From Tubiluchus corallicola (lineage: Eukaryota; Animalia; Priapulida), in the NCBI GenBank assembly GCA_030141605.1, contig JAQGDQ010000009.1, forward strand, positions 620,001 to 684,000: a stretch of 64,000 bases of DNA. The letters run 5' to 3'. Both the position numbers and the translations under genes were made by a program. Under the pieces are notes generated by a model. It was not told the DNA's origin. It saw only the letters and a list, made by a program, of their open reading frames with translations, and did no database searches. Shown one piece after another: positions 355 through 3,300 of this stretch (the stretch's first letter is position 1; each line of letters starts with the position of its first letter).

Positions 355-3300
355 CTTTTCCTGTTTCATCAAATCTACTGTAAGCTGCATTATTAAGCTT
401 TAGTGCACAACGTTGTAGAGGTAGCCAAGAGTAAGATTCAGGACATAAGAGATACGATGGTTTAAATCTGCCCTAGAAACAATGAATGGAAACAACTTAT
501 TTGTAATGTGAAAGATGAATCCTTGTCAACACATAGTACCAGTGTGTAGCCAAGAATAAGACTCAGGATATAAGAGATACAGTGGTTTAAATCTGTCCTA
601 GAAACAATGTATGGAAACAATTTATAGGCAATGTGAAAGATGAATCCCTGTCAATACTACCAACTTTTGTACCATATAATACCAACACTAACAACTTTAT
701 TATTTGAAAAATAGCAATTTATTATTTACAACAGTAATTACATTCTATCATTATAGATATGATCATCTTACCTTATATCTCATCTTTGGACAAGAATGTA
801 TGTAGTACCCCATGCAGTAGTATTTCATGTCCGGGTTACTTTGAACTAAGGAACGCACGAAAGCAGCTTCCCTGAAAAAAATTACAGGGGAATAATAACC
901 AGACATAACATTCAGGCGAAATAAAAATTCCAAAACATATGTATTAATTACCAAGGCATGAATCATACAAGCATAAAACACAAAGCATGTACACTGTTTC
1001 TCAAAGACAGACAGCGTCACAGATGTCAAAGTTTTAAATTTTTTAACAACAGGTGAATAAACAATAGATTTTGTCCAATATCAACTGACACAAAAAACCT
1101 ACCTTTAAATGGCAAAAGTTTGTCACAATCATACACACAACAACTTGTAAAAAATCAAAGTAATGACACACATACAACTTTAGTTGGATAAATGAAAAAA
1201 TAAAAGTAATGACACACACATATCAACTGATATTTGTACTAACCATACAAAAAGGCGATACATGTACATTTTTTGTCATTCAACTAAATTTACAGTAGAT
1301 AGAGCATCAAAGTCCTTAATAACTATCAACAAATGTTTTGCATTTCATACACTGCTGTAAAATATGACATTTTAATTGAACAGTACTAAAAACTACTTAC
1401 CTCAAAGCAGCGTATGTTCCTAATGATAAGAAACCATAATCGGGATCATAATACAGGTAAACAGAAGAAACGTAGTTTGGAAGAATATCTATCACTCCAA
1501 CAGCAATTAGTTTACCATCCAGCCAATATTGCTGATGAAATGATCCATATTCGTGTGCTGAGCTGCCATGTAGAAATTCACTCTACAATAAGAGTTTTAA
1601 ACAGCATTAAATTGCTTAAAAATTGAATAGCATGAGTTTAACCTCTCCGCATGATTGTTCTTTTAGAAAACAGTTTTGTATGAGCAATATGCAAAGAAAC
1701 CCACATTGTAATATAGCTAAATGTTTTCAAAGAGGATAGAGGATTTTCACATGGCACTGAATATTTACCATTACGTTATGACATACGCAAAATCGAAATT
1801 ATTACAATAAATGTGAAAATCTCGTGCCTGTGAAATATAGCACATTTAGCTGACTGGTTATACGAGAGTTACATAGAACTACAGACATTAGGGACACCTT
1901 ACAGGCCAATGCTCCATTCCAACAATAAGAGCAGGTGAAAGTAAGCTTAAGTTAGCAAGTTTCTGCCTTTTTAATTACAATAGTTGCGAAGCAAAAATAC
2001 CTGCAAAGGTGAATCTACCAGAAACTCGGTAAACATGCTCTTACTGCACTCAGACGGCTTGTCATTGTGGATTTTGATCTGATATTTTTGAAAAATGTCC
2101 AAAGATTTCAGAAAACTATCACGGAATTTTTCACTCCCGGGACTGGATCGAACAGTTGTTACCTGGAGAAAATTGCAGTGCAAAACTTCTAAATTGTGCT
2201 CACAAGATGGCGCAGCACCATGACGCAGAAGACAAGATTTGCTGTACAGATTTAATGACAACAATTTAGTGACACGACGAACTAGATGTTATATCATCCG
2301 TAGTCAACAGCAGCGCACTCACATAAATAACTGTAACGCTGGACGTATTTAACATAAGCTTACTCTCTCCGAGAAAACCAATGTTTAGAGACGATTTCGT
2401 ATAGTGTATTTCTACCTAATTTAACTTTTTTAAATGATGCTGCACCATTGCAGATATAGTTGAACTAATGCACTATGACTTTCTCCAGAGAACTTCACAT
2501 ATTAAATACAAATTACATTATTATACCTCTAGAGGTGAGTCAATCAAAAACCGCTGAAACTGTTTGCGTGTACACTTGTCTTCTGGGTCATGATGAATTG
2601 CCATTTGATACTTTTTATAAACATCGTACGTTTGTTCAAACGTTTCACAAAAATCTGATTGTTGATTTTCGGGTCTGGATCTAACTAGCTTTATCTGGAA
2701 TACGCAGCAAAGCGATGTAGTTACAATGAGATACTCAACGGCACTAAGTTTAAAATACCAGAAAGTTTTTCATTAGGCCGGCCACAAAAAAATTTGTTTC
2801 TGTCTTTCCTCATGAGCTCAAAAGATGCCAGTAGGGAGGGAAGAAATTTTTTTTCAGATTTCGTGAATGTTTAAAGTTAAATCGTGGAATATATAAAATC
2901 AGTTGAAATCAAAGATTGTTCATCTCCCACTAGTTAGCAGTAATGTTTTCAATTTTTTCAATGCATATTTTTCACACTCTGTTTTTTAGTTTTGTATTAC
3001 TAAATTATGATATAATTGTCGATTATTGTATTATCTCCTTTTTGTATCATGAACGTGTATGCTCTGATAATTATGGTATAAGCGGAAACACTACTTGGCT
3101 GTTAAATACATCGATTTGGCAGAAAATTCCATACTTTTTAGCCTCCAATACAATGAACATCATAGGAAATGGGAACCTTGGCCGAGAGTTAGCCGTGGAA
3201 AAACATTCCCGCATCCTGCGTTCCCCGAAAGAACGATTTTACAATAATTATTGCATTTTATGTTTTAAACTATAAAATATGCTTTTATATGACTGCATCA

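Follow-up and report, generated by a model that had tools for sequence, protein, structure and literature searches.

The twin exons of ATE1 in the priapulid Tubiluchus corallicola carry a real, non-random network of complementary elements, and this network is wired unlike both a preliminary description of the same DNA and the human gene. Its helices are predicted to fall into two rival folds, each of which is likely to silence one of the two exons, and a two-fold splicing switch is its most likely role; we put the probability of this reading at about 0.5. All of the structure is predicted from one sequence, lying in what is called here the window, the whole stretch of 64,000 nucleotides that was analysed and from whose first letter all positions are counted.

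The ATE1 locus and its surroundings

ATE1 occupies the minus strand of the window from about 8731 to past 355, as placed by translation and tblastn, in intron-rich DNA with a GC content of about 34%. The constitutive exon upstream of the twins (3541–3630, on the minus strand like all exons and elements of the gene given below) ends in ...HRLE in phase 0 and was delimited by translation, splice sites and tblastn. It is followed by exon A (2527–2694; 168 nt, 56 codons), an intron of 364 nt, exon B (2001–2162; 162 nt, 54 codons) and a further constitutive exon (1401–1582) defined by translation and splice sites. Exons A and B have AG/GT ends and open frames, encode the same ATE1 segment in tandem and are 39% identical, A being of the first-copy (7a-like) and B of the second-copy (7b-like) type. 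Profile matches for A and B have E-values of 3.9e-28 and 1.2e-25, and exon A matches residues 281–326 of human ATE1 (8TZV; E 2.5e-10). The pair is the tandem duplicated exon pair of ATE1, of the 7a/7b type; translation, splice sites and profile matches bear out the preliminary description, which had proposed ATE1 with twin in-frame exons here. In T. corallicola the two exons are probably used in a mutually exclusive way; each has a length divisible by 3, which leaves decay unable to remove transcripts that include both. Run X1, which may be the source of the window, is identical over 1573–2791; run X3 has 2 differences within 2486–2916, and run X5 lies off the cassette.

The gene and its neighbourhood hold several other features. 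A decayed small tandem duplication at 475–605 is a near-copy of the first part of the ATE1 exon at 472–355 and of its upstream intron; it adjoins that exon upstream and contains an acceptor near 598 and an in-frame stop. An ATE1 intron contains a tandem array of roughly 42-nt units (6560–7420) with long open frames on both strands. About 80 nt upstream of exon A lies a 634-nt non-coding element (2776–3409) with terminal inverted repeats and TAA on both sides (minus strand); its contig depth is hundreds of times that of the flanks, which marks it as a high-copy MITE, presumably of the PIF/Harbinger type given the TAA duplication. Head to head with ATE1, a many-exon gene spans 12800–31500 on the plus strand and is, we assume from its translations, listerin/LTN1-like; searches with the listerin-like exon returned no clear match, only generic repeat-protein look-alikes. 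Three tandem paralogous genes at 35700–60200 (minus strand) are taken from their translations to be monocarboxylate-transporter (SLC16-type) paralogues, and fragments between two of them (49811–51272, plus strand) presumably derive from a non-LTR retroelement reverse transcriptase, which they resemble.

Complementary elements of the cassette

In transcript order the elements of the cassette are E, N, M, X, D and acceptor B. An inverted-repeat scan found its two strongest helices. One, E:D, joins E, the coding middle of exon A (2604–2575), to extended D (2236–2207), that is D (2221–2207) plus 15 nt upstream; 25 of 30 positions pair (24 Watson-Crick, 1 G-U), with a 4x4 internal loop and one C-C, at about −38 kcal/mol (−37.5). 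The other, N:acceptor-B, joins N (2493–2462), an intronic antisense copy of the acceptor region of exon B, to that region itself (2158–2189), covering the pyrimidine tract, the AG and the first five exon bases; 26 of 32 positions pair (23 Watson-Crick, 3 G-U) at −32.0 kcal/mol. A UnA branch-point candidate lies beside the acceptor region, at 2190. How unusual are such helices? E:D, the best of 8 exon-A tiles, was reached in 0/100 shuffles (z −7.5) and N:acceptor-B, whose target was fixed beforehand, in 0/300 (z −5.6), the weight of these controls being limited by the fact that real DNA is richer in inverted repeats than shuffles. In a genomic control from the window's own DNA, one of 1251 tile/neighbour pairs reaches the value of E:D or N:acceptor-B. 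The other nine of the ten ATE1 exons tested give −11.4 to −19.6 for the acceptor against upstream sequence and −18.3 to −21.6 for the exon against downstream sequence. In exon B the corresponding paralogous stretch pairs with D at only −9.1, which makes D specific to exon A; synonymous recoding of E (347/5000) gives no clear codon fit.

A third helix had already been described. The preliminary description placed a middle element M (2456–2434) between two partners, D and U (2709–2692), the latter at the acceptor of exon A; coordinates and letters of all three agree with the sequence. The 3' part of M (2448–2434) forms 15 contiguous pairs with D (13 Watson-Crick, 2 G-U; about −24.8 kcal/mol), and U:M, read by hand, has 17 pairs including 2 G-U, with one C-C and one bulge (−17.5 kcal/mol), U and D both using the same 7-nt core of M. 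M:D is a real outlier: D is the best partner of M in the rest of the intron, at a level found in 0/300 shuffles (z −5.2, with M chosen post hoc). Its energy is reached by 14 of 1251 genomic tile/neighbour pairs, and by the best duplex anywhere in a shuffled 950-nt region in 44% of 300 shuffles.

U:M is marginal. When the acceptor-A window was fixed beforehand, its best value of −18.5 was matched by 172/300 shuffled introns; the exact U is equalled in 13/300, and −17.8 is reached by 325/1251 genomic tile/neighbour pairs. Given M, the pairing of acceptor A is equalled by 109/6000 random 35-mers and by 123/3825 YAG-ending windows (uncorrected), and donor B is a better partner of M than acceptor A is (40/6000). 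The 5' part of M holds these weaker matches to acceptor A and donor B. U itself is predicted instead in a local hairpin (2713–2688), and U:M may at most be a minor contact rather than a main arm.

Other pairings are secondary. X (2380–2344) is an alternative partner of N (through 2380–2363, −15.6) and is also predicted to pair with 2510–2498 in the fold that would use exon B. Its segment 2370–2350 can pair with Y (1954–1934; −24.4), an uncertain helix that spans 400 nt, would loop out exon B in the layout of the long-range human R2/R5 helix and costs about 15 kcal/mol to force. Equally uncertain is Z (1906–1895), which pairs with donor B; the best pairing of donor B with the downstream intron is reached in 22/300 shuffles. 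A further helix between M and donor B (1992–2011 with 2443–2462; 7/300 shuffles) is, like X:Y, unpopulated in nested folding, and both would act against exon B. No outlier long-range partner of the cassette was found in 5500–3630, 3630–3412 or 1850–40 (best −26.8), and Rfam gave 0 matches at E 1 across 1500–3600.

Could the helices be remnants of local inverted duplications, or chance, with splice choice left to proteins and splice-site strength? Compared with shuffles, a control that the preliminary description had proposed for M:U and M:D, the seven strongest duplexes of the region (ranks 1–7) each score 0/300. Compared with the rest of the window, the cassette region comes sixth of 106 strand-windows, and the five that score better represent three other places with close inverted repeats, their best arms 3–117 nt apart. 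Strong local inverted repeats lie at 32397–32604, 63270–63375 and 21834–21905 (−37 to −63 kcal/mol per duplex) and are possibly small transposons. The existence of such repeats elsewhere speaks for a left-over or chance origin, as does the opposite strand, which folds almost equally (−34.8 vs −38.7), and the helices are known from one sequence. The preliminary description had taken the G-U pairs on the sense strand as a sign of selection on RNA; five ungapped registers contain 8 G-U against 3 A-C, but the excess is modest and the argument weak, the helices having been picked allowing G-U. Against this origin, three separate outlier helices fall on the exon body, on the acceptor and nested between, and the outliers occur only at the twin exons, one of ten exons in each test. 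We consider left-over or chance complementarity rather unlikely.

Another view of E:D is that it guides ADAR as an editing-complementary sequence, either to recode exon A or to edit the A in the AG of acceptor B, with any effect on splicing secondary. Imperfect exon:intron duplexes with an A-C mismatch are the general form of ADAR substrates; E:D is a 30-nt imperfect duplex between exon and downstream intron with an A-C mismatch, and N:acceptor-B contains 2 A-C mismatches and includes the AG among its paired bases. However, the A opposite C in E falls at a third codon position, where the change would be synonymous, and editing leaves unexplained why D should have a competitor in M. In the available part of Kalinina et al. 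(PMC7797038), the human elements R1–R5 are reported to show no editing. An ADAR role seems improbable to us.

Two predicted rival folds and a possible switch

How would these helices exclude one another? N:acceptor-B encloses M:D, and the two make one interrupted stem; E:D crosses N:acceptor-B, as follows from the order E, N, D, acceptor B (the crossing layout of srp-type bidirectional pairing), and competes with M for D. The shared strand is therefore not M, as the preliminary description had it, but extended D, which can pair with E along its full length or with M along its 3' half. When M:D alone is imposed, N:acceptor-B enters the minimum-energy fold in 4/4 settings, and imposing N:acceptor-B likewise recruits M:D in 4/4. 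At 37 °C the forced ensembles of the two folds over region 2770–2100 are nearly tied (−177.2 vs −177.1 kcal/mol), and at 20 °C they come to −254.1 vs −250.4 kcal/mol; the tie does not hold up across model settings.

Folding was computed with four parameter sets, three temperatures and two sequence windows, 24 settings in all, by a nested method that ignores pseudoknots. The E:D fold (fold B) dominates in 23 of them, at 0.69 or more, and the M:D plus N:acceptor-B fold (fold A) in one, so that fold A needs an outside push. Such a push was imitated in blocking runs with Turner 2004 at 37 °C on the two windows. With E or the 5' half of extended D kept unpaired, M:D rises to 0.93–0.94 and N:acceptor-B to 0.95–0.96 in both windows; with M or N kept unpaired, E:D stays at 0.92–0.93. 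In growing transcripts E:D reaches 0.93 once 2207 has been transcribed, about 50 nt before acceptor B is complete. Within fold B, N:X can form part of a long rod with a model-dependent probability (0.01–0.68 over the 24 settings). A temperature switch, considered because fold A gains at 37 °C in two of the four parameter sets, is not claimed.

U:M plays no part in these ensembles. Its probability stays below 0.02 in 22/22 growing-transcript folds and is 0.0 in 24/24 settings and 18/18 blocking runs; both strands are tied up in local hairpins of their own (−8.1 for U, −4.9 for M), which puts the price of forcing the helix at 4.7–9.0 kcal/mol before D is made and at about 19–21 kcal/mol at 37 °C over the full region. 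This bears on the model of the preliminary description, in which M docks with either partner, U:M hiding acceptor A to select exon B and M:D freeing it, as human R3 does with R1 and R4. Some features suit that model: the 7-nt core is common to U and D; acceptor A outdoes 98% of random 35-mers in pairing with M; a pseudoknot or a protein could stabilise U:M; and U:M points the same way as E:D. As an arm selecting exon B, however, U:M is at chance level with the prefixed window and unpopulated in unconstrained folds, and D lies clear of acceptor B, with M:acceptor B also at chance level. The model as a whole is very unlikely. Parts of it survive: competing elements are present, though the description was incomplete, missing the two strongest helices of the region, and M:D does belong to the fold predicted to favour exon A. 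It had also found no route by which M:D would repress exon B, and the predicted answer here is the enclosing N:acceptor-B helix.

The two-fold switch could then work as follows. In fold B, extended D would lie on E, N would pair with X and acceptor B would be free of N, so that exon A would be skipped; in fold A, D would pair with M, the N helix would cover the pyrimidine tract and AG of exon B, E would be free and exon B would be skipped. Naked RNA would by default adopt fold B, the first to form during transcription, and use exon B. The trigger for fold A would likely be a protein that occupies exon A within the 340 nt or so transcribed before D appears; the very act of recognising exon A would then close exon B, as D goes to M and N zips over acceptor B. 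How can E:D silence exon A if it covers no splice site? The silencing is assumed to be that of a masked enhancer; the middle of exon A has a purine-rich stretch that, in our reading, resembles a splicing enhancer. In the internal loop of E:D, four D bases complementary to M are left unpaired, a possible toehold that could seed the exchange. We infer from the predicted folds which exon goes with which fold, and the protein trigger likewise. In the available part of a preprint (10.1101/2022.06.15.495552), ZFR, ILF2 and ILF3 affect human ATE1 exon choice, which makes them candidate proteins.

The computed accessibilities are less clear-cut than this scheme. Even in fold B some local pairing of acceptor B persists (unpaired 0.28 vs 0.14), and, contrary to expectation, donor A opens less in fold A (0.16 vs 0.53). 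A hybrid could also form, with M:D on the 3' half of D (−24.5) and the 3' half of E on the 5' extension of D (−19.3), which would blur the two states.

Intron length and known systems

Does the human gene offer a template? As far as the available text of Kalinina et al. 2021 (PMC7797038) goes, human ATE1 exons 7a and 7b are controlled by the helices R1–R3/R3–R4 and R2–R5, and the preliminary description was right to choose this comparison, competing helices acting there on the same exon pair. The same gene and duplicated segment are involved, with competing helices in and around the intervening intron; a 3' splice site is hidden, predicted here for acceptor B via N and marginal for acceptor A; and dependence on co-transcriptional folding is likely in both. 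The wiring is different. In that account of the human gene one element, R3, pairs with either acceptor and all five elements are intronic, whereas here D is predicted to choose between the coding body of exon A and the decoy M, and a separate element, N, to hide acceptor B. No single element pairs both acceptors (M:acceptor B −12.2, 1412/6000; N:acceptor A −17.3, 183/6000), each element favouring one target. In human, R1 and R4 are described as similar elements that each lie immediately before an exon and overlap a splice site, whereas D lies 45–59 nt upstream of exon B, clear of the acceptor. The human exons have 43 codons plus a shared 11-codon exon, against 54–56 codons here. This layout lends no support to deep conservation of the human R1/R3/R4 elements, which the preliminary description had entertained.

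Closer in topology is exon 4 of srp in Drosophila (PMC4691838, PMC6071210, as far as these sources were available), where crossing helices exclude each other as E:D and N:acceptor-B would. Its arms are conserved intronic elements that surround and activate the exons, whereas here an exon body and an acceptor would be covered and the shared strand would add direct competition. Docking and selector elements are mainly intronic according to the available portion of PMC7404189. In OGDH, exons 4a and 4b are kept apart sterically by a short distance between 5' splice site and branch point, with a limit of about 50 nt (PMC7969005, available part); the intron here has 364 nt.

That comparison raises a different view, in which the structures do no more than tune the A/B ratio, and a distant branch point close to donor A keeps exclusivity steric. 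A yUnAy match at 2501–2505, 25 nt past donor A, falls inside the limit cited for OGDH, and related loci have introns of 34–52 nt. Yet from 2494 onwards the intron contains 22 AG dinucleotides, the candidate lacks a long pyrimidine tract after it, and three UnA candidates lie 28–59 nt from acceptor B; the role of the match as a branch point is doubtful. We regard steric exclusivity at this locus as unlikely, and the two-fold switch as the preferred reading.

Both exons are present in 5 of 80 related metagenome loci (L001:1584–1956, L004:4298–4655, L005:1056–1430, L010:53–425 and L011:1538–1913), with A–B spacings of 49, 34, 51, 49 and 52 nt, in a set biased to short contigs and read-through frames; the 34-nt intron of L004 is very short. 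Eight proteins picked as read-through products (six clusters) imply introns of 30–54 nt, again in a set biased to short introns. The 364-nt intron is seven to ten times the length at the short-intron loci, where spacings of 34–52 nt, near the steric limit, make steric exclusion likely by analogy. Four of these five loci were scanned for flank helices, the best being −26.1 and −30.5 (L001) and the others −13.6 to −26.7, as energies without a shuffle control. An orthologous long A–B intron was found neither among the 80 metagenome loci nor in genome or viral contigs.

How old is the exon pair itself? Twin units are present in molluscs, chelicerates, a myriapod, insects, a hemichordate and vertebrates, with about 52–56 codons in protostomes and the window and 43 codons plus a shared 11-codon piece in the deuterostomes seen. 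A 43-codon exon with an 11-codon mini-exon, as in deuterostomes, also occurs at L006:675–803 (and at L007 and L008), in one copy within the contig. First copies carry K in 26/27 and a final Q in 26/27, second copies E or D in 27/27 followed by C in 25/27, residues that run from vertebrates to arthropods and molluscs and that the two exons of the window carry as well. In a tree, 27 first and 27 second copies are split by one weak branch (47/84, 43 columns). Separate duplications remain compatible with AU tests (p 0.19, 0.35 and 0.35) on 44 of 68 rows, a set from which every single-copy row and five pairs were omitted. A 171-column ATE1 tree, from a set without named sponge, cnidarian, annelid, echinoderm or tunicate, groups the window with L006 and one other protein (95/94), outside the named bilaterians, a position that may reflect long-branch attraction. 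A 7b homolog is said to be absent in invertebrates in the available part of Kalinina et al. (PMC7797038); the bilaterian tandem pair, with two forms of one segment kept across bilaterians, is known from PMC8373072, in the part available. An ancient origin of the twin exons was dropped as a new finding, being already in that paper.

What, then, is new? Twin invertebrate exons and the human switch are published; the E/N/M/D layout was not found in the literature searched. PMC8373072 and PMC9741552, in their available parts, deal with exon age and convergence, with RNA structure of invertebrate ATE1 absent there, and a full-text literature search, outside which most subscription papers and supplements lie, found no paper dealing with RNA structure at ATE1 exons of invertebrates. 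In the literature found, enforcement of ATE1 exclusivity is shown only for human. The first reading of this DNA is corrected in that the arms expected to matter are no longer U but N together with the 5' half of D. Structure may have replaced a steric block when the A–B intron grew. Taken further, and tentatively, this lineage may have swapped the steric block for an RNA switch of its own that uses the coding body of exon A as an arm, so that occupancy of exon A shuts exon B, a solution different from the human one. If true, a compact 700-nt cassette with different wiring would mean that control was re-invented on an old exon pair, probably as a very short intron grew, and it would offer a small test system in which exon recognition competes with exon–intron pairing.
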